This document shows, one piece after another, positions 1,083-64,000 of a stretch of DNA of 64,000 bases. Under the pieces are notes generated by a model. That model was not told the origin of the DNA and searched no databases. It worked only from the letters and a program-made list of their open reading frames with translations. The translations under genes were made by a program, and so were the position numbers. Origin of the DNA: a virus (Duplodnaviria > Heunggongvirae > Uroviricota > Caudoviricetes); IMG/VR virus record IMGVR_UViG_3300006143_000348. The stretch is one strand, 5' to 3'. Numbering within the stretch: the first letter of the stretch is position 1; each line of letters opens with the position of its first letter.

Positions 1083-1898
1083 TCACTGTGTAACAGTTGA
1101 TTTATGTATATCTGAAAACTCAACGCTATGTACTTTTTTAGCAGAATTTCTTTTACGTAGTACCGAATTTATACGGTGTTGTAAGTCAATTTCTTCCGCA
1201 CATGCTTTACAATACTTCTGTTTCCGGCCTTTTTGTGGGTTGTTATATTTTACGGTGATGCCACAGTTTACGCATTCAAAGTATGGTTCCCCGACATATT
1301 TTAAATATTGGTATCCAAGATTTCGGAAATCAGTTATCTCAAGGGCAGTCTCACCTTCCTCTGCAAAGCATACCCGGACATTTGTGTTGTCAATGCGCTT
1401 GGAGAAACGAAGCACCCCTAGTTCTTTCAGCGCGCCGAACATAGCACACTGTCTTTTGATGGATGTGTTGATATTCGCCATAGCCATGATTTCATTATCC
1501 CTGTTCTTTACCCAATAATCGGTGACAGGGGATACGGCATACCAGTATTTGGCGAGGCACAGCAAAGTAAACGCCAACCTCCTGAGTTGCCTGCCGCCGA
1601 TGGAGTCGATTCTGTCCATTTCGGGCTTTGTTATGATGATGCTTTGGATATCTATGGCTCCGTACTTTAAAGCGCGTTTTAGGGCATTATCCAGCGTCTC
1701 AGACCATGTGGTTAATGACGCGGACGGGTCGCACTGGATGAGGAATATGTCTAGTCTCTTACGAACTTCTGTTTTGGAATATCCAGAATCAAGGTAATAC
1801 CTTGCGACGCGGTAGAGCGTCTGATATGGCTTTTTGCCGAGCGACCTGTCTTGAATCATCTTTTCAGCCCATTCGTTTTCTTTTAATATAATATTCAT
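1083..1898 (-). CDS. Hypothetical protein with C-terminal Zn-ribbon (CVNCG...CKAC); possible DNA-binding/replication accessory
   Basis: 271-aa ORF. Its stop overlaps the start of the upstream 914-aa gene (ATGA overlap at 1895-1898). C-terminal motif CxxC-x17-CxxC. Confidence 0.65.
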   Translation of the reverse strand: MNIILKENEWAEKMIQDRSLGKKPYQTLYRVARYYLDSGYSKTEVRKRLDIFLIQCDPSASLTTWSETLDNALKRALKYGAIDIQSIIITKPEMDRIDSIGGRQLRRLAFTLLCLAKYWYAVSPVTDYWVKNRDNEIMAMANINTSIKRQCAMFGALKELGVLRFSKRIDNTNVRVCFAEEGETALEITDFRNLGYQYLKYVGEPYFECVNCGITVKYNNPQKGRKQKYCKACAEEIDLQHRINSVLRKRNSAKKVHSVEFSDIHKSTVTQ

Positions 1899-4639
1899 TC
1901 GTCCACCTCAATTTCTTTTGATATCATTTTGAATTTGCTGCCGCGGTAACAGATGTCCCCACTATTGTCCCTCGTAGGGAATGACAGCGTATGGTTATTG
2001 TTTGCAAGTAAGTTATGGATAATTTCTGTGCCGCATATATTCCATGCGAAGTTTTTCGTGGCGCTTTTGGTATAACATAGGTCGAGTAGGATATCGCATA
2101 AGGAATATTTATTTTGACAGATAATATCACATTCTTTTCTAAAGTTATCGTTCATATCCAATAATTGTACGTGTGAAGCAAATTTATCCATGCGCCTGTA
2201 CTCTGCGGAAACAGAATACTCCTGCAGTTTTTTATTGTAATTTGTGTACAGCTTCTGGATTGCCTTATATTGGGCGGCGGTGTAAGAAGCCCCGCTCTTC
2301 ATAATTGTGTAGTCAAATTTAGATTCTGCATTATGTTTACCGACATATCCATCAAATTCCTGCTCGAATCTCCTGCAAATCCGGTTCATCACACAGTCGC
2401 TGGTGCCGACGGGCATCCGGTATTCATAGTATTGGAGGAAGTCGGCCTGACGTTCAGTCAGCTCTTCGGGCGGAATCTGCTGAAGCTCACTTACGGTCAT
2501 CTGGAACTCACGGAGGGCATTCTTGTCCGTGCTCTTAACGTATTGGCTGTACTGCTTCATCAGGGAAGGGTATATGTACCGCATAAAGTACGGCTTCTTG
2601 TCGGCTACGATACTCCTGCAGAATTCACGCTGAGCATCGTCCTCTATCTTGTTTACAGCGTGGAGGTCGTGCCATGTCTTTGGCATCGGCTTGCAGATGA
2701 TGCCCTTAGCCTTGTCGATGGCGTTCTGCTGGTAGAGCTGGCCGCAGCAGATGCGGTAGGAGAGGGTTTCGTATTCAAGGCTTCCTTTTTCGAACCTGGA
2801 GCGAACCTCGAACATGGAAGTAATCCAGTTCGTAGTCTGCCCGATGTCGTTCCCGAAGCTCCCGATATTCGACTCGATGAAATCTTGCTCCGTGGGGATT
2901 GATTTGGCCGCTTTCCGCTGGGCGCACATCAGGGAGGGGAGCTGCTGGAGCTTTTCAACCAATACGCGGTTGTCGGTAAGCATGACTAAGTCTCCGTCGA
3001 AATCCATGCCGTTTAACGCGGCTGTGGCGGTGTCCCATGCATTGAAGACGGTGCATGTCTTCAAATGTTTATACCAGTAGCGTATCTCCTCCGTATCGGC
3101 TGGATGCACGAGGCGGATGTTGTTGTGGCACGTCATGGGCGCACGGTAGCAGGCAAGCCTGTCGGCACCCTCGTCTGCCCAGTACTGGTTGTATATCTCC
3201 CCTGGCCTCAAAAGCCCGGTTACGTCTAGGCCGAACATGCTCTGGCATAACGCATAGGGGTCTCCAGATACGATGGAGTAGTTGCCGTGAACCTTCAAGA
3301 CGCCGACTTTGGCTTCCTTGATGCGGGTTTTAATGAGCCGGTAGATGCTGCTTTGGATGAACGGGTCTTCAATCATGCGCTGGTCGGCCATGATAGCCTT
3401 TATGTAGTCATCCTCCAGGCTATTGATATTGGACTCGTTCAGCCCCATGCCGCGCAGGAACAGGATGGTCTTGCGCCAGTCCCCGCCCAGGACGTCCCTG
3501 ATTTCGTCCATCGTGGGGGCAATCAGCTCCTCTATGTCATCGTCGTCCAGGTCATAACTCTGGATGAATTGGTAGTTCAGGGAGCGCTCGTTTTCCAATG
3601 CCTTCGGGCATGTCTTTGCAATCCCGAAGGTATAGCCGTTGCGCAGCGAGTTCTGTACGTAGTCCTCGCAGCTTTTGTAACTATCCCAGAGCTTGACCAT
3701 AGACGTGGTAAGAATCAGCTCCACATTGCGCACGTCGACCTCATCCCCCCAGGCATCGCGGATGGTGTAGTTCCCTCCAGCGACCTTATCGGCGAAATCC
3801 AGGAAATCAAAGGTGATGGCCATGCCCTTTTCGAAAGAGAAGCGGGTGTTGGCTCCGCTGACCACATAGCCAAGCCCCAGCTCCCGGCTCCAGCGCTCGG
3901 CAAGGGAGGGGAGCATGATACCGTAGCCGTCTGATGCGTCCATGTCAATTTTCTCGGATTTTCTGGGCTGCATCAGTGGCTCATCCTCGCATTCATCCGT
4001 CAGGTACACGATATCCGACAGGAAGCTGGTATTGCAGTCATCCACGACGGCGATGCCTTTCGGGAACGATACAGGGACGGAGGCGCTGCACGTAAGGGCT
4101 TGGTACGCTTCGAGCTTTGCCGTCACCATTTCCTTCTGCATGTCGCGCCCATTAGCTATGCGGCGCTTCAGTTCATCAGCAATGGCGCTGTTTACGAACA
4201 CGATGGTGCTGTTTTTGATGCCGCCATTTGTCCCAAGGAGCCTTTTGTAATGGATGCCGTTGATGGAAAAGCCCTTGCACGCCCTGTAGTAATCCTTCTT
4301 CCTGTCTATTATCAGGCAGACATAATCGGGCTTGTATTGCAGCCGGTCAAGCTCTGCGTACAGGGATTTCATCATCCGGCGGCTCTTAATGCTGTTCGCC
4401 TCGGCTCTGAGTTGGCGGATGTCAGATTTTATCTGGCGTGCTTTCGCGTCAGAATCAGGGGTTTCATTTATGGAGTCAATCCAGCGGAGCATCTGGCTGT
4501 CAGCCAGGGAGATTACTTCGTTGTTCCTGCGCGCTTCTTCGATTGGGAGGGTAAGTTTCCATTTTTCTTTGCGCAGGCGGCTGCTGTGCAGCTTATAAAT
4601 GTATTTTTGGCAGGTTAATTGCTTACTGATAAAAGTCAC
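1895..4639 (-). CDS. Large (914 aa) protein with 'GMDFDGDLVML' motif; candidate single-chain two-barrel RNA polymerase (YonO/QDE-1-like). Tentative.
   Basis: Long uninterrupted ORF in an operon with the ATPase and Zn-ribbon genes. The central motif GMDFDGD resembles the NADFDGD/DxDGD Mg-binding loop of beta' and of YonO/QDE-1 DPBB polymerases. No family A/B DNA-polymerase motifs were seen. Confidence 0.7.
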   Translation of the reverse strand: MTFISKQLTCQKYIYKLHSSRLRKEKWKLTLPIEEARRNNEVISLADSQMLRWIDSINETPDSDAKARQIKSDIRQLRAEANSIKSRRMMKSLYAELDRLQYKPDYVCLIIDRKKDYYRACKGFSINGIHYKRLLGTNGGIKNSTIVFVNSAIADELKRRIANGRDMQKEMVTAKLEAYQALTCSASVPVSFPKGIAVVDDCNTSFLSDIVYLTDECEDEPLMQPRKSEKIDMDASDGYGIMLPSLAERWSRELGLGYVVSGANTRFSFEKGMAITFDFLDFADKVAGGNYTIRDAWGDEVDVRNVELILTTSMVKLWDSYKSCEDYVQNSLRNGYTFGIAKTCPKALENERSLNYQFIQSYDLDDDDIEELIAPTMDEIRDVLGGDWRKTILFLRGMGLNESNINSLEDDYIKAIMADQRMIEDPFIQSSIYRLIKTRIKEAKVGVLKVHGNYSIVSGDPYALCQSMFGLDVTGLLRPGEIYNQYWADEGADRLACYRAPMTCHNNIRLVHPADTEEIRYWYKHLKTCTVFNAWDTATAALNGMDFDGDLVMLTDNRVLVEKLQQLPSLMCAQRKAAKSIPTEQDFIESNIGSFGNDIGQTTNWITSMFEVRSRFEKGSLEYETLSYRICCGQLYQQNAIDKAKGIICKPMPKTWHDLHAVNKIEDDAQREFCRSIVADKKPYFMRYIYPSLMKQYSQYVKSTDKNALREFQMTVSELQQIPPEELTERQADFLQYYEYRMPVGTSDCVMNRICRRFEQEFDGYVGKHNAESKFDYTIMKSGASYTAAQYKAIQKLYTNYNKKLQEYSVSAEYRRMDKFASHVQLLDMNDNFRKECDIICQNKYSLCDILLDLCYTKSATKNFAWNICGTEIIHNLLANNNHTLSFPTRDNSGDICYRGSKFKMISKEIEVDE

Positions 4640-9430: not shown

Positions 9431-9936
9431 GTGGAAGCCCTTAAACCGACTCGATAGCGGTTTTAAAAGATACTATCGCTCTGAGTAATCAGTGCACGAG
9501 CGGTTATCCGCCTGTGAGAGTACATCTGCTACCAGATGCGTCGCTGGGTGCGTAGGAAGTAAGCCTATGGTTCGGATAGTGAAAACCCCCAGAGTTACAC
9601 CCAATTAGATGTGAAAAGAGGTCGCATCTGCCTGAATGCGTCACCATGAGGGACTTCACCTTGAAAATCTTCGAGGGCGTCCAACGCAACGATATCAGTG
9701 CCCGAGGGCACATCGGCTATGTTCCGAGGAATTAAATGCCGGATTGTTTCTGGACGTCTGAAAAGACAGAGTAAAGGGAAGACAATAGAATATTGAGACA
9801 GCCGCCCTCCGGGGCGGTTGATGAGCATATATAGAGCATCCGAGACTTTAGTTATGAATCTGGCTACGCGGCATCGTTTCGGGTGTTCTGTTATGGGCTT
9901 ATCCATAAAAATAAATAGCCGAAAGGAGAAAACGAT

Positions 9937-16424: not shown

Positions 16425-16861
16425 CTAGCAGGCAATGCTAAATAGTCCCATGTGAGAGTAATTTCACATGCAAATCTATCGAATTGCTGGGAACCCCTAA
16501 AGCTCGCAATACCACAACGTAAGAATGAAAGAAATCTAAGCGTGACGGTAACGAAAGTAGAAAGAAATTGCGAGATGGCGCAAGGTTAAATCCTAAACGC
16601 TTTTGCAATGGGCAATCAGCAGCGAAGCTCCGAACAGGAGAACGTTCAACGACTATCCCGTAAGGGAGTAGGGCGCAAGCGGTCGGTGTCCGAAGTGGTA
16701 GACACCCTGAGAAAAAGGGCGATGATATAGTCTGTACTGTAGGGAAACTTACAGAAATCTCTTTGGAGGCAGCATGGAACAGCGAGCCATGCTGAACATA
16801 ATAGAATGCATAGGAGCTTGTAGCACAGTGGCAAGCGGGTTAGGCAACTAGCCCGCTTGTT

Positions 16862-37516: not shown

Positions 37517-37736
37517 ATGCAAAGTGTCCTCCTTTCGTAGATTCCTCGAAAGGTTTCTATGTAAACAGAGCTTGTTCTCGCTGATGGAAGACAAACCGTC
37601 CTACCGTGCTTAGGTAGAACCTATGTACATTCTACAAAACATTCCATATATTGTCAATTTATTATTTGAAGGAACAAAAAATGTCTAGCTCTAATTGGTT
37701 CGGAACAGTAAAGTAGATAAGAGAGGAGAGTCTGTC

Positions 37737-38096
37737 ATGAATGAATATACTATTATCAAAACTAGTGGCGAAGGATATGGCAGACTAATTCTGTGTCTTT
37801 CATTTGAAAGTCTGCTAACCTATATCAATAATATCGAGCATGTACTTGTTCAGGACGGAGTTAATGAAAAAGTCTTAATTGACCAGCTATTGATAACTGG
37901 TGATGGAGCAAATAGATTTATGAGCAGTGATTTTACGCAGGGAAAACTCGATTTCAGAACAGCACAAATAGTACAACCAGCGGAGTATTTCAGAAGAAAA
38001 ACTAATGAATGGCTACATGATAACTATTCATTAGTCGAAAATTCAATATTAACCGAGCAACAACGTCAGAAGATTAAAGATAAAATAGTCTTTTAG
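37737..38096 (+). CDS. Hypothetical protein (about 119 aa)
   Basis: The start at ATG 37737 has AGAGGAGAG upstream. The track start is 37695. Confidence 0.7.
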   Translation: MNEYTIIKTSGEGYGRLILCLSFESLLTYINNIEHVLVQDGVNEKVLIDQLLITGDGANRFMSSDFTQGKLDFRTAQIVQPAEYFRRKTNEWLHDNYSLVENSILTEQQRQKIKDKIVF

Positions 38097-38237: not shown

Positions 38238-38390
38238 AAGGATTGAGGTTGTCATCAGTCTAAAAAATATATCTACCGTTGGAATGACGGAAAGTTACGC
38301 CTGTGGAGATGGAGGTTACGAAGTCGATGAAGCAGGAATCTTACGACTTCAGTCGTGAGAGGGTCAATTTGATAAGGATAATTTTTTGAT
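38238..38390 (+). repeat. About 150-bp conserved non-coding element (copy 2; see 20795-20945)
   Basis: About 90% identical to 20795-20945. Immediately upstream of the antitoxin-sRNA promoter. Confidence 0.6.
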
Positions 38391-38434
38391 AAGGGCATAT
38401 TGAAAAAGGTTTTCACATATGCTATAATGCCAAT

Positions 38435-38528
38435 AGGCAAAAAGAGATAAAAAGTCCATGTGGGCAAAAGAAACGAATCCCCAGATTGGTATGGCAGTAC
38501 CGTCTGAGGATTCTTCTTTTCTTTTATA
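38435..38528 (+). ncRNA. Candidate type I antitoxin sRNA 1 (about 95 nt)
   Basis: Promoter TTGAAA(38400)-N17-TATAAT(38423-38428) with an extended -10 TGc. Terminator hairpin GAATCCCCAGA/TCTGAGGATTC at 38475-38513 plus T-run. The 5' segment CAAAAAGAGATAAAAAGTCCATG (38437-38460) is a direct repeat of 38623-38647, so it is complementary to the toxin mRNA across its start codon. Confidence 0.6.
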
Positions 38529-38548
38529 GTGGCAAAGCACCCACTAGG

Positions 38549-38647
38549 CTATTTGTTGCTTTTGCCGTCACCGTCTAACCATTTGATGATGTAGTGGCAG
38601 GCTACACCTCCCAAAACGGTAACTAAAAAAGAGATAAAAAATTCCAT
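38549..38647 (-). CDS. Fst-like type I toxin 1 (32 aa: MEFFISFLVTVLGGVACHYIIKWLDGDGKSNK)
   Basis: Minus strand. A GGAGGAGG RBS lies 8 nt upstream of the ATG. A hydrophobic helix plus charged tail. Its mRNA converges on the sRNA terminator. Upstream are an extended -10 promoter (TGtTATAAT) and a 5' hairpin CGTTGC/GCAACG next to the SD sequence. Confidence 0.6.
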   Translation of the reverse strand: MEFFISFLVTVLGGVACHYIIKWLDGDGKSNK

Positions 38648-38958
38648 GCAAGCACCTCCTCCCCGTTGCGGGTATCGGTGAGCAACGAAAAAATTATAAC
38701 ATATTATCCGACAAACTTCTATAATTAATTCATACGAAAAAATGTAGAGGGGATTATGGCTACAAGAATCCGATGCTCGCTATCTCTATAGGACACTATC
38801 TCTGTGGACATCTCAAATAATCAATTTTTGTGTAACGATATCCTTATAGTAGGTTACGAGGTCGATGAAGCAGGAAACCCACCGAGCTTTAGCTCGTGGG
38901 TAGTTCACATTGCCAAAAGTATATTGAAAAAAGTTTTTGCATATGCTATAATGCCAAT

Positions 38959-39047
38959 AGGCAAAAAAGATGCAAAAGTTCCATGTGAACAAAGAACGAA
39001 TCCCCGAACCGTGTTGCACCACAGTTCGGGGATTCTTCTTTTCTTTT
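38959..39047 (+). ncRNA. Candidate type I antitoxin sRNA 2
   Basis: Promoter TTGAAA(38924)-N17-TATAAT(38947-38952). A 12-bp terminator hairpin GAATCCCCGAAC/GTTCGGGGATTC at 38998-39035 plus T-run. The 5' segment AAAAAAGATGCAAAAGTTCCATGTGAAC is repeated at about 39142-39172, which makes it complementary to the toxin-2 start region. Confidence 0.6.
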
Positions 39048-39070
39048 ATAGTGGCAAAGCACCCACTAGG

Positions 39071-39169
39071 TTATTTGTTGCTCCTGTCGTCTCCGTCTAA
39101 CCATTTGATGATGCAGTGGCAAGTTACACCAGCCGCGACAGCGATTAAAAAAGATGCAAAGAACTCCAT
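39071..39169 (-). CDS. Fst-like type I toxin 2 (32 aa: MEFFASFLIAVAAGVTCHCIIKWLDGDDRSNK)
   Basis: Paralog of toxin 1, with the same architecture: GGAGGAGG RBS and a 5' hairpin. Confidence 0.6.
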   Translation of the reverse strand: MEFFASFLIAVAAGVTCHCIIKWLDGDDRSNK

Positions 39170-39464
39170 GTGAACACCTCCTCCCTGTTGCCGGGTATCG
39201 GTGAGCAACAGGGAAATTATAACATATTATTTGGTGACTTGCTATCTTTTTCCAAAATCGCTTGTAACGGGGATTGCAATTGACATAACCCGACACCCGC
39301 TATTTCAGTGGACATTGCCACAAAGCGATTCTCGTGCAGTTAATACTCATAATTTTTGTTTACACAAATAGGAAAAGTTTAGCCTGAGTTTACACGCTCA
39401 GGCATTTTTATTTTTCAAGAAACTGCCGAGGCACGAATTCAAGAAAAAACGAGGAGGAGTTAAT

Positions 39465-61917: not shown

Positions 61918-62410
61918 CAAGCATGGCTGTAAAATGAATTGAATCACTTTTCGGACGAACTTTAGGACTATTTCAGGATTTCGCTTCATAAGTTAGAGAA
62001 ACGCAAAGGGGCAGTAAAAGGGAGGTGGCCGCTATTTCTAAAAAGAAAAAGTTGAATTATCGTTTTCATAATCCAAATACGCCAGAAGTCACGGCTGATT
62101 ACATAATCAAGGTACTGATGGAGGCGAATAAAAAGAAGCTTGAACAGGCCTTGAAAGAAGAGGTATTGAAGTGCGCCTGTAATGAATAAATGAAAAGATA
62201 GGAAGCCGCTGCAGGAGTGTAGCGGCTTTCGGTGTAATATGCGTTTCTGAAGGAATAGAAAAGAAGACAAAGATATTAAGTTTTATGAATGTTGTGTTAG
62301 TAATATAAAAACCAGAAGCCTGTTGATTTACTATCATCTTAGTGATATTATAATATTATGGAAAAGATTTTATAGCTTTAAAATGTTGCTTTTAGATGAA
62401 GGGGGTTAAA

Positions 62411-63742
62411 GTGGAAGAAAAGAGTTTAACGGTTTACGTTGCTAAATTAAAAAAGTTGAGAATACATGAGGTGCTTTTAGTTTTATTGGAAATTATTGCT
62501 ATGGGTGTTTGTACCATATATGTTTTTATGAGTACATTTAGTTCTAATGAAAAAATTTGTTTTTGGAATATAACACCTTCAATGATTGAATTAGTTGTAT
62601 TTATGCTGTCAGTTATCATGGCTTTAATTAATTCTGAAAGTACTAGGAAAAAAAAGAACATAGTTAAAGATTATTTGTCTGCATTAAATGATGAATCACC
62701 TTCAGAAATTGTAAATGGATATAAAATTAAGGCAGAGCAATTAATATCTCCGCTGGATATATACAAAGATAATATCAAAAGAGGAAAGAGGGTTACCCTT
62801 CATAATAAAAGAGAGGTCATTAGAAGTTATATATTATTTATTGGGGCACTAGTTATGGTTAGCGTTGCTGTTATTATTTTGTTTATATGCAATTTGAATT
62901 TTCCCATATTATTAGCGTGGGAATCATTGATTCTTTATTTTTTTATAATGTTAGATTTTTTTGCTTATCAAATAATTGTAAATAAGAGTGGTTCCAACGT
63001 TTTTTCGGAAAGGCATAAAAGTAAAATTTCTTTTGATAAAGTAAAGCGGTTAGAAGACATGAGATATTTACAGAAAATTTTATATATGCATCGCGATAGA
63101 TATGAGAATTATTTATTAACTTTGAAAATCTCTACCATTACGACAAATATATTATCAATTATTATTACAATTATTATTGAGGGGGATAATGAGAAAATAA
63201 AATACTGGTTTGGACTTAAAGATTCGCCTAAAATAATTCCAGTGATATTTGCTATCACTACAATTATTTTATATGTTATTAGCTTGATTTTTGGAAATAT
63301 AATGGATAAAAAAATTAATGACATGGGGGTATACATTTCGGCGTCGTATAATAAAAAAAATTATGAGAGTTTAAAACGAAAATTTCCAGATTTGTTAGAA
63401 TATAAAAACATATTAGATGGACATTCACTTGATATAGCAAGAGGAACATATGAGTATAATGTAGAAATAATAAACGACAGAGAAAAGCGAACTATAAATT
63501 ATACACATATATTTAGAGTAAAACAAAGGATTGTAAATAATATACCTAGAGTCAAATTAACTTCTGGAATTGCTTTCATTTTTTCAGCTTCTATTTTAGT
63601 ATGGTATAAAATGAACATTTTTAATATGGTATATGTTTGTATAATAACATTTATTGCATTTCTGTCTGCATATTTTGGTATGGTATTTTATAATCGTATA
63701 AAGTTTAATGATTGGGAAGCCTTCGTAAATCAAGAAAAATAA
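62411..63742 (+). CDS. Large multi-pass membrane protein, low-GC (hypothetical)
   Basis: Visibly AT-rich with Ile/Lys/Asn-rich codon usage. Several hydrophobic segments. A GTG start at 62411 follows AAGGGGG (the track's ATG 62396 lacks an SD sequence). GC composition drops sharply from about 62.3 kb onward. Confidence 0.65.
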   Translation: MEEKSLTVYVAKLKKLRIHEVLLVLLEIIAMGVCTIYVFMSTFSSNEKICFWNITPSMIELVVFMLSVIMALINSESTRKKKNIVKDYLSALNDESPSEIVNGYKIKAEQLISPLDIYKDNIKRGKRVTLHNKREVIRSYILFIGALVMVSVAVIILFICNLNFPILLAWESLILYFFIMLDFFAYQIIVNKSGSNVFSERHKSKISFDKVKRLEDMRYLQKILYMHRDRYENYLLTLKISTITTNILSIIITIIIEGDNEKIKYWFGLKDSPKIIPVIFAITTIILYVISLIFGNIMDKKINDMGVYISASYNKKNYESLKRKFPDLLEYKNILDGHSLDIARGTYEYNVEIINDREKRTINYTHIFRVKQRIVNNIPRVKLTSGIAFIFSASILVWYKMNIFNMVYVCIITFIAFLSAYFGMVFYNRIKFNDWEAFVNQEK

Positions 63743-63779
63743 ATTAGTAAAGTGTTGTTTTTTTATAATGGGGAATGAG

Positions 63780-64000
63780 ATGAATATTAATCCTGATAAA
63801 GTAAAAGAATTGATAATGCTGTTTTCAAAATTGGATGATGATTATCAAAAAGAATTAATGGGGAAAGCGTATGAACTATGTTTAAAGCAATCTCAAAAGA
63901 ATTTGATTAAACAAGAAGGTAAAAAATTTAAAAGTGAAGAAGAGTACAAAAAGGAAATCGAAGAAAGAAGTAGCGAAAGAGCTAAAGAATCACTGGAGTT
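63780..64000 (+). CDS. Hypothetical protein (partial, continues past window end), low-GC
   Basis: ATG 63780 follows GGGGAATGAG. The frame stays open to position 64000. Confidence 0.45.
   Translation, partial: MNINPDKVKELIMLFSKLDDDYQKELMGKAYELCLKQSQKNLIKQEGKKFKSEEEYKKEIEERSSERAKESLE

Follow-up and report, generated by a model that had tools for sequence, protein, structure and literature searches.

Does the region around positions 38400-39200 of the IMG/VR virus record IMGVR_UViG_3300006143_000348 (Caudoviricetes) encode two tandem toxin-antitoxin (TA) modules of type I, each consisting of a small membrane peptide and a convergent small RNA (sRNA) directed against its mRNA, as had been predicted from the sequence of the 64,000-nt stretch analysed here (hereafter the window)? 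Based on the analysis of this region and its homologs it appears very probable that the window carries two tandem, intact type I TA modules with the organisation of par (Fst/RNA II), whose carrier is a large element of a gut Lachnospiraceae that resembles a phage or phage-plasmid. The evidence consists of the sequence architecture, its conservation and covariation, the predicted thermodynamics, the coding signature and the similarity of the peptides to the Fst/Ldr profile. It supports an undescribed divergent subfamily of a known kind and no new mechanism.

Layout of the two modules

The modules correspond to two tandem units of ~523 bp within positions 38386-39255 of the window, which share 77-96% identity with each other (repeats D1-D5 of the repeat search). 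Each unit encodes one peptide of 32 amino acids (aa) on the minus strand, and both open reading frames (ORFs) are present exactly as originally quoted, toxin-1 at 38549-38647 (MEFFISFLVTVLGGVACHYIIKWLDGDGKSNK, 32 aa plus stop) and toxin-2 at 39071-39169 (MEFFASFLIAVAAGVTCHCIIKWLDGDDRSNK, 32 aa plus stop). The sequence GGAGGAGG is located on the minus strand 7-8 nt 5' of the ATG of each ORF; the Shine-Dalgarno (SD) sequence of toxin-1, read directly from the sequence, is GGGGAGGAGGUG (38654-38664, minus strand). Directly 3' of the toxin-1 stop codon lies a small hairpin (38527-38546, minus strand; TAGTGGCAAAGCACCCACTA on the plus strand) which is also kept in the homologous loci L001 (PQ006166.1) and L002 and in most of the 32-aa family members.

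Opposite to the toxin ORFs, near-consensus promoters for sRNA-1 (38400-38428) and sRNA-2 (38924-38952) were identified on the plus strand, both of the form TTGAAA-17-TATAAT with a TG extension and an 11/12 match. The toxin promoters on the minus strand consist of the extended -10 element TGTTATAAT of the TGnTATAAT type (toxin-1, 38693-38701, with a weak -35; toxin-2, 39216-39224). Given these positions module 2 extends past 39200, so that the originally assigned span of 38400-39200 locates the modules correctly but ends too early. The same difference between the promoters is seen throughout the family, in which the sRNA promoter is near-invariant (TTGnAA, TG in 67/68 and TATAAT in 66/68) and the toxin promoter is an extended -10 element only (TG in 61/69, TATAAT in 50/69). 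Judged from these promoter sequences, the asymmetry of a strong antitoxin and a weak toxin promoter is the usual pattern, with the antitoxin presumably in excess.

The spacer and initial transcribed region of the sRNA promoter are conserved beyond what a promoter needs (38415-38445 and 38939-38969; consensus ATTTGCATATGCTATAATGCCAATAGGCAA) and contain the palindrome GCATATGC as well as GCCnnTAGGC. This palindromic region may represent an operator for some regulator.

Transcript ends were predicted by setting the transcription start site 7 nt after the -10 box and placing termination in the U-runs. The predicted antitoxins are sRNA-1 (38435-38524, plus strand, 90 nt, minimum free energy (MFE) -28.5 kcal/mol, z -3.7) and sRNA-2 (38959-39046, plus strand, 88 nt, MFE -32.9 kcal/mol, z -5.2), each with a 5' tail of ~30 nt that is essentially unstructured, followed by a long terminator hairpin and a U-run. 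The predicted toxin mRNAs both comprise 220 nt on the minus strand (mRNA-1, 38686 to 38467, MFE -69.7 kcal/mol, z -2.8; mRNA-2, 39209 to 38990, MFE -80.5 kcal/mol, z -4.6). In each module the two transcripts share a bidirectional terminator, an intrinsic terminator stem-loop at 38476-38514 in module 1 and its counterpart at 38998-39035 in module 2, with hairpins and U-runs predicted on both strands. The resulting complementary 3' overlap lies outside the ORF and is predicted to be fully complementary over 58 bp in module 1 (38467-38524) and to span 57 nt in module 2 (38990-39046). The convergent plus-strand sRNA running from its promoter to a strong terminator shared with the toxin transcript, as originally described, is therefore also predicted here for both modules.

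Furthermore, the expectation that such small genes escape annotation was borne out: an identical stretch with the two modules between RnlB and NifS genes occurs in three NCBI assemblies, where it forms a gap of 1.37 kb without any called gene, and no feature is annotated at any of the plasmid or phage homologs examined. The element is present in the assemblies GCA_949484745.1, GCA_022804855.1 and GCA_948960325.1. On the strand opposite to the toxin ORF of L001 a deposited "hypothetical protein" coding sequence (3835-3975, plus strand) covers the sRNA and terminator region and is probably a mis-call.

Predicted pairing of the small RNAs with the toxin mRNAs

The central claim of the original prediction was that the 5' end of each sRNA is a direct repeat of the start region of its toxin gene. 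The quoted repeat strings are present at 38439-38460 and 38626-38648 in module 1 and at 38963-38985 and 39147-39170 in module 2, and they contain exact cores of 15/15 (38439-38453 = 38626-38640, repeat D8) and 14/14 positions (38963-38976 = 39147-39160, repeat D9), respectively. Thus, the 5' targeting segments of sRNA-1 (38436-38466, plus strand) and sRNA-2 (38960-38991, plus strand) are repeat copies of the start regions of toxin-1 and toxin-2. Their predicted targets are the translation initiation regions (TIRs) of toxin-1 (38625-38655, minus strand, ~-7 to +23, with the AUG at 38647-38645) and, according to the duplex prediction, of toxin-2 (39147-39177, minus strand).

RNA folding and duplex prediction, which had been proposed as a check, returned duplexes that were stronger than those of shuffled sequences. 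The duplex of the first 39 nt of the sRNA with the cognate TIR reached -34.5 kcal/mol in module 1 and -37.0 kcal/mol in module 2, corresponding to z-scores of -5.8 and -6.4 relative to dinucleotide shuffles. The complementarity starts just 3' of the SD (-7) and continues through the AUG to approximately +25, leaving the SD itself uncovered. Hence, of the proposed pairing across ribosome binding site and AUG only the AUG part can be upheld. Nested co-folding of the full-length RNAs produced the 3' overlap duplex alone because the contact between 5' tail and TIR crosses it topologically, as in par, and the 5' tail was therefore evaluated alone against the mRNA. When the cost of opening the folded full-length mRNA was included, the tails still yielded a ddG of -22.8 (module 1) and -18.4 kcal/mol (module 2), compared to means of -7.5 and -3.5 kcal/mol for shuffled tails.

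The toxin mRNAs themselves are predicted to be structured in a way that would restrict translation. The 5' end of mRNA-1 (GUUGCU) is predicted to pair with AGCAAC near the stop codon; in mRNA-2 the 5' end is predicted to pair with GAGCAAC near the stop codon and the SD with codons 6-8. Across 40 mRNAs (RNAalifold and direct counting) the helix joining the 5' end to the last codons shows compensatory changes (GUUGCUC/GAGCAAC, GUUGUCC/GGACAAC, GUUGUCAU/AUGACAAC, GUUACCG/CGGUGAC), with a cognate mean of 6.56 bp against a maximum of 6.17 bp after permutation. A helix internal to the ORF, formed by codons 9-11 with codons 25-28, is likewise compensatory, one of its pairs being UA in 17, CG in 12 and UG in 10 sequences. 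According to the ensemble calculations the SD is paired with a probability of 0.46 in module 1 and 0.84 in module 2 (mean of 0.74 over 66 mRNAs). Its partner varies between the upstream untranslated region (UTR) and codons 4-10 across the family and, in the MFE folds of the two modules, between the U-rich codons 6-8 and the upstream UTR. Taking into account this variable partner and the value of only 0.46 for module 1, the originally proposed 5' hairpin sequestering the ribosome binding site is partly supported: the SD is predicted to be partly paired, though not by a simple 5' hairpin.

In the family alignment (A2; e.g. window 38541-38686, minus strand) residue 10 (T or A) varies together with residue 26 (G or S), as do the tail codons (S/D/G-N) with the sequence of the mRNA 5' end. 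These peptide residues covary because of the mRNA helices.

Homologous modules were found in a variety of replicons. By blastn, three inovirus genomes from Peromyscus faeces, all of them circular, were found to contain copies of ~75% identity, and tblastn revealed relatives on small plasmids from the genera Mogibacterium, Waltera, Mediterraneibacter, Lactococcus and Aerococcus as well as a more distant relative on ~346 Enterococcus plasmids, mostly of E. faecium. The module layout recurs in the three inoviruses and in six plasmids from Clostridia and Lactobacillales; some of the plasmid homologs reside on plasmids of 4-7 kb where the cassette adjoins rep genes. A pattern scan detected at least 379 relatives in species-representative genomes, nearly all of them Lachnospiraceae and many of them metagenome-assembled genomes from mouse gut, and 165 relatives on IMG/VR viral contigs. 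Homology between loci is limited to a cassette of 300-480 bp with unrelated surroundings. The family is barely represented in protein databases, given that a 45-aa extended version of the ORF matched just two clusters, both of them N-terminally over-extended.

In the case of E. faecium a near-palindromic coding stretch caused tblastn to match the wrong strand, the real ORF being located opposite. An unannotated par-like module on the minus strand of E. faecium DO plasmid 3 (NC_017963: 34281-35770) encodes MKYLFDFVFAIKPFAEVTAHYICKWLDCKIAKKDSKPTS and has its own TIR repeat with a duplex of -37.9 kcal/mol; the same ORF is found on the ~346 Enterococcus plasmids.

The comparison of these modules addresses the claim that the repeats differ between the two modules while matching within each. 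Co-variation between two paralogous copies alone is weak evidence and becomes decisive only with a comparison across the family. All 72 modules with enough flank contain a repeat of their own TIR 40-120 nt after the stop codon, with a median alignment score of 34.5 compared to 17 for non-cognate pairs, and in 68 of these 72 the reverse complement of TATAAT follows ~10 nt beyond the repeat. The duplex is divided in a DRa/DRb-like manner into two helices by a conserved mismatch or indel of 1-4 nt located at codons 2-3. In a 10x10 duplex matrix the diagonal was best in every row and column. The larger matrix of 68x68 modules, which included 56 distinct sequences of codons 2-8, gave a mean of -36.9 kcal/mol for cognate against -19.8 kcal/mol for non-cognate pairs; none of 10,000 permutations reached the observed mean, and 49 of the 68 sRNAs ranked their cognate toxin first. 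The claim is therefore upheld across 68 modules, and the convergent promoters, the shared bidirectional terminator, the direct repeat with its complementarity to the TIR and the small TM peptide with a charged tail are kept across 68-72 independent homologous modules.

The peptides and their relation to known type I toxins

If the ORFs were fortuitous, the conserved element would be purely RNA, either a convergent sRNA pair or a cis-element tied to IS607/RAGATH-18-like relics. A sub-threshold RAGATH-18 fragment in each unit and the RNA helices that constrain parts of the ORF could be cited for such an interpretation. However, the ORF is intact and preceded by an SD in 79/79 copies, and the motif AGVACHYIIKWLD is near-invariant despite the divergence of the DNA. 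In an alignment anchored at the Trp codon the differences per site at codon positions 1, 2 and 3 amount to 0.055, 0.062 and 0.194 in the ORF core, and judging from this pattern the toxin ORF is under purifying selection. This excess of 3-3.5 times at third positions effectively refutes a purely RNA-based element, and RAGATH-18 is moreover absent from 20 other module-bearing loci, leaving the idea with a practically negligible probability.

The encoded peptides were described in the original prediction as a transmembrane (TM) helix with a charged tail, which agrees with both the hydropathy and the family alignment. The mean Kyte-Doolittle hydropathy of residues 3-21 is 2.08 and 2.17 for the two peptides, and their tails, DGDGKSNK and DGDDRSNK, are acidic or mixed. 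All 58 family sequences share V15, W23 and D25, and nearly all have HYI-KWL unchanged. The Fst/Ldr superfamily is characterised by a Trp between the TM helix and the charged tail and, in most members, by a P/D/S/T-XXX-G(C) motif, whose Pro in the form PXXXG is needed for toxicity in Fst and Lpt (PMC7472228). The peptide of module 1 fits this motif as TXXXG (T10-VLG-G14, followed by C17), whereas the peptide of module 2 does not (A10-VAA-G14, i.e. AxxxG).

A comparison of the 58-sequence profile with an alignment of Fst, PepA1 and Fst-EF0409 by hhalign resulted in an end-to-end match with Prob 88.6% and a score of 26.3, which is above 400/400 column shuffles (maximum 16.6). Among other toxins LdrD scored 21.1, and TisB, BsrG, Hok, ShoB and Ibs scored 5.7-14.5. 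We therefore place the peptide, with moderate confidence and on the basis of profile similarity, in the Fst/Ldr superfamily as a divergent clade whose regulation is of the par type. The confidence in the superfamily link is only moderate because the Fst sequences used for comparison are validated solely via their PF13955 matches.

This last point is one of several that weigh against the reading as Fst-type TA modules. PF13955 (Fst_toxin) and all Fst-type models of NCBIfam matched none of 12 family members at E<=10, although PF13955 detected Fst, PepA1 and Fst-EF0409 as positive controls, and the family profile gave no match against PDB sequences, where Fst and PepA1 would be expected. The functionally essential Pro of PXXXG is missing from the family except for the E. 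faecium variant. The SD occlusion of module 1 is moderate (P = 0.46). In addition, the crossed pairs against full-length mRNA reached -9.2 (sRNA-1/mRNA-2) and -14.7 kcal/mol (sRNA-2/mRNA-1); the latter value predicts some one-way cross-talk, and the two modules may thus be incompletely insulated from each other.

Some of these results would also fit a type I TA system whose toxin is unrelated to Fst/Ldr, being either a product of convergence or more closely related to NF047374 of C. difficile (CD0977.1/RCd11-type), with a par-like layout of independent origin. Besides the lack of PF13955 and PDB matches, the members on the Waltera and M. gnavus plasmids match NF047374 weakly (21.3 and 18.9 bits; E 2.7e-4 and 1.5e-3), and peptides as short as these can converge on the combination of TM helix, Trp and charged tail. 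These matches are nevertheless far below the cutoff of 60 bits, cover the hydrophobic N-terminus only and do not include the window peptides. The C. difficile toxins comprise 34-53 aa with Lys-rich tails (PMC7699646), whereas the tails of the window peptides are acidic or mixed as in Fst. Taking furthermore into account that the hhalign match to the Fst profile is end-to-end and exceeds all shuffles, and that an interaction site outside the 3' overlap is a hallmark of par and SprA1 (PMC8594479), an unrelated toxin seems unlikely. Membership in NF047374 itself was rejected, the best member scoring 21.3 bits and the window peptides remaining unmatched.

The organisation of the modules is closest to the par loci. 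The par layout consists of convergent promoters, a bidirectional terminator, DRa/DRb and the structures termed 5'-SL and 5'-UH (PMC7472228). As in pAD1 par of E. faecalis (Fst; RNA I and RNA II) and its chromosomal homolog par_EF0409, the promoters are convergent, a toxin mRNA of ~220 nt and a short sRNA, both predicted here, share a common bidirectional terminator, the sRNA 5' end would pair with the TIR outside the 3' overlap via oppositely transcribed direct repeats, and intramolecular structures are predicted to sequester the mRNA 5' end and, in part, to mask the SD. The ~32-aa peptide with its TM helix, conserved W/V-L and charged, largely acidic tail also resembles that of these par loci. 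The repeats are poorly conserved between loci in pAD1 par and its relatives as well (PMC7472228), which accounts for specificity. The initiating YUNR U-turn in the terminator loop, with which the kissing complex starts in par-type loci, is not universal in the family (PMC7472228).

In contrast to Fst, the window peptides lack the Pro in the P/D/S/T-XXX-G motif (TxxxG or AxxxG), and their family, which PF13955 does not detect, has the near-invariant motif HYII(K/R)WLD. The modules also differ from pAD1 par in having a single repeat of ~30 nt with a conserved internal loop of 1-4 nt (codons 2-3) instead of spaced DRa and DRb, a predicted sRNA of ~90 nt instead of an RNA II of ~40-65 nt, and a partner of the 5'-end helix at a different position, namely in the last ORF codons. 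The DRa/DRb logic of pAD1 par that had been attributed to the modules is thus confirmed as a single-repeat variant with an internal loop, in which the repeat confers the complementarity to the TIR.

S. aureus SprA1/SprA1AS (PepA1), Lpt, Fst-Sm and Fst-A/B of S. pneumoniae similarly involve peptides of ~30 aa, which share the W-L junction and the helix position of a Gly, and the SprA1 antisense RNA, despite its overlap with the 3' end, acts via a non-overlapping 5' region on the TIR (PMC8594479). PepA1 differs by its basic tail and canonical APxxxG, with an identity of only ~13-25% to the window peptides. Fst-like loci are often tandemly duplicated and overlooked by annotation (PMC2887945). The C. 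difficile pairs CD0977.1-RCd11 and CD2517.1-RCd8, prophage- or CRISPR-associated type I TA systems for which a role in the maintenance of mobile elements has been proposed (PMC7699646), share with the window modules the occurrence in Clostridia on prophages or plasmids, the convergent transcription and the unannotated small ORFs. They differ in their longer toxins with positively charged tails (34-53 aa, Lys-rich; PMC7699646) and in antitoxins that act via the overlapping 3' region, whereas those of the window modules would act via a separate direct repeat. Enterobacterial Ldr/Rdl shares the toxin superfamily signature (LdrD, 21.1 by hhalign), yet its sRNA lies opposite the 5' end and follows a hok/sok-like leader logic (PMC7472228).

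From this organisation we infer the following course of events, including the transcript ends, the relative stabilities of the RNAs, the block of translation, the toxicity and the biological role. The weak extended -10 promoter would produce a toxin mRNA of ~220 nt whose 5' end is locked with the last codons and whose SD is partly occluded, while the strong convergent promoter would produce the ~90-nt sRNA. The common bidirectional terminator would give both RNAs a complementary 3' overlap of 57-58 nt as the likely first contact, after which the unstructured sRNA 5' tail would pair from just after the SD over the AUG to approximately codon 8 and thereby block 30S binding. Once the supply of sRNA stops, through loss of the element or a shut-off of transcription, the peptide would be translated. 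With its one TM helix, invariant Trp and short charged tail it would enter the membrane and cause arrest or death of the cell, which would stabilise the mobile element or possibly serve abortive infection.

Alternatively, the same arrangement could regulate a small membrane protein that is neither a toxin nor part of an addiction system, e.g. a phage peptide for superinfection exclusion or for the modulation of a holin or transporter. The window is phage-like, many relatives are located on viral contigs and in inoviruses, the proline that is essential for toxicity in Fst and Lpt (PMC7472228) is missing from the motif, and a toxic effect of the window peptides is itself a prediction. On the other hand, the cassette is also found next to rep genes on plasmids of 4-7 kb and in the chromosome at many sites unrelated to each other, as is typical of selfish TA cassettes. 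Three predicted layers of silencing (SD occlusion, the lock between 5' and 3' regions, the sRNA over the AUG) are hallmarks of a harmful product, as is the combination of a strong antitoxin with a weak toxin promoter, and the peptide is specifically similar to Fst/Ldr toxins. A non-toxic membrane protein is thus considered quite improbable, and two intact TA modules of the par type are preferred.

Rfam models gave no match at gathering score in the region of the window under study and none in 20 homologous loci. Matches to ohsC, RalA, ctRNA and SpF66 at E<=10 were rejected as being at chance level. The motif strings of the family were not found in the literature searched; all that Fozo 2010 and Soutourina 2019, from whose lists T1TAdb was built, mention in this respect are Ldr/Fst-like ORFs, given without names, in C. 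bolteae and C. asparagiforme.

Wider occurrence and genomic surroundings

There is about an even chance, in our estimation, that the "HYIIKWLD" peptides and their sRNAs represent an undescribed major clade of Fst/Ldr with an RNA family of its own, constituting the dominant type I TA cassette of mobile elements in gut Lachnospiraceae, with a related branch in Enterococcus. Large phages or phage-plasmids would carry it, as would Gram-positive inoviruses and small cryptic plasmids, besides its occurrence in hundreds of Lachnospiraceae genomes. Type I TA loci are systematically overlooked by annotation, and Pfam, NCBIfam and Rfam all miss this clade; its definition would yield a ready hidden Markov model and covariance model for annotation and would explain why phage-plasmids and cryptic plasmids are stable in dominant gut commensals. 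The peptide sequence of this clade is visibly shaped by constraints of RNA structure, and the clade's more than 60 covarying sRNA/target pairs form a natural data set on the specificity and cross-talk of co-resident type I modules. If functional, the modules could provide tools for counter-selection and maintenance in genetically intractable gut Clostridia, the C. difficile toxins being a precedent for candidate counter-selection markers in Clostridia genetics.

The window encodes DnaB, NrdD, several anti-repressors of the Ant type, recombinases, a reverse transcriptase, a STAND NTPase and a group I intron, and its Pol III alpha subunit is 43% identical to those of the C. difficile phages LIBA6276 and LIBA2945 (~130 kb). 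This gene content indicates a large temperate phage or a phage-plasmid. Directly upstream of the modules an ORF for an RnlB-type antitoxin was detected (37695-38096, plus strand; PF15933, E 2.4e-17) without an obvious RnlA/LsoA toxin partner adjoining it; it may be an orphan or an anti-defence antitoxin on this phage-like element.

The spacers of the two units contain the fragments of RAGATH-18 (RF03064) mentioned above, at 38300-38338 and 38801-38876 (both plus strand), which score 27 and 20 bits against a gathering threshold of 44.9; a partial third copy is found at ~39300-39365. In the guide RNAs of IS607-TnpB, RAGATH-18 forms the 3' scaffold (PMC11061315), and the fragments look like relics of an element of this type. 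RAGATH-18 was rejected as a part of the modules, being sub-threshold here and absent from the 20 other module loci.

At greater distance from the modules, a protein of 914 aa (1895-4639, minus strand) matches PF05183 (E 1.5e-16), a family of RNA-dependent RNA polymerases of eukaryotic type, which is unusual for a bacterium or phage. A RAGATH-16 RNA (9523-9594, plus strand, 75.1 bits) and the group I intron (16430-16754, plus strand, 82.5 bits) both exceed the Rfam gathering threshold. The reverse transcriptase (PF00078; 26081-27220, plus strand) is located near an AAA/STAND NTPase (PF20720; 28394-29503, plus strand), and the two could form a defence gene pair. Finally, the G+C content drops to 0.285 over positions 62001-64000 compared to ~0.45 in the rest of the window.

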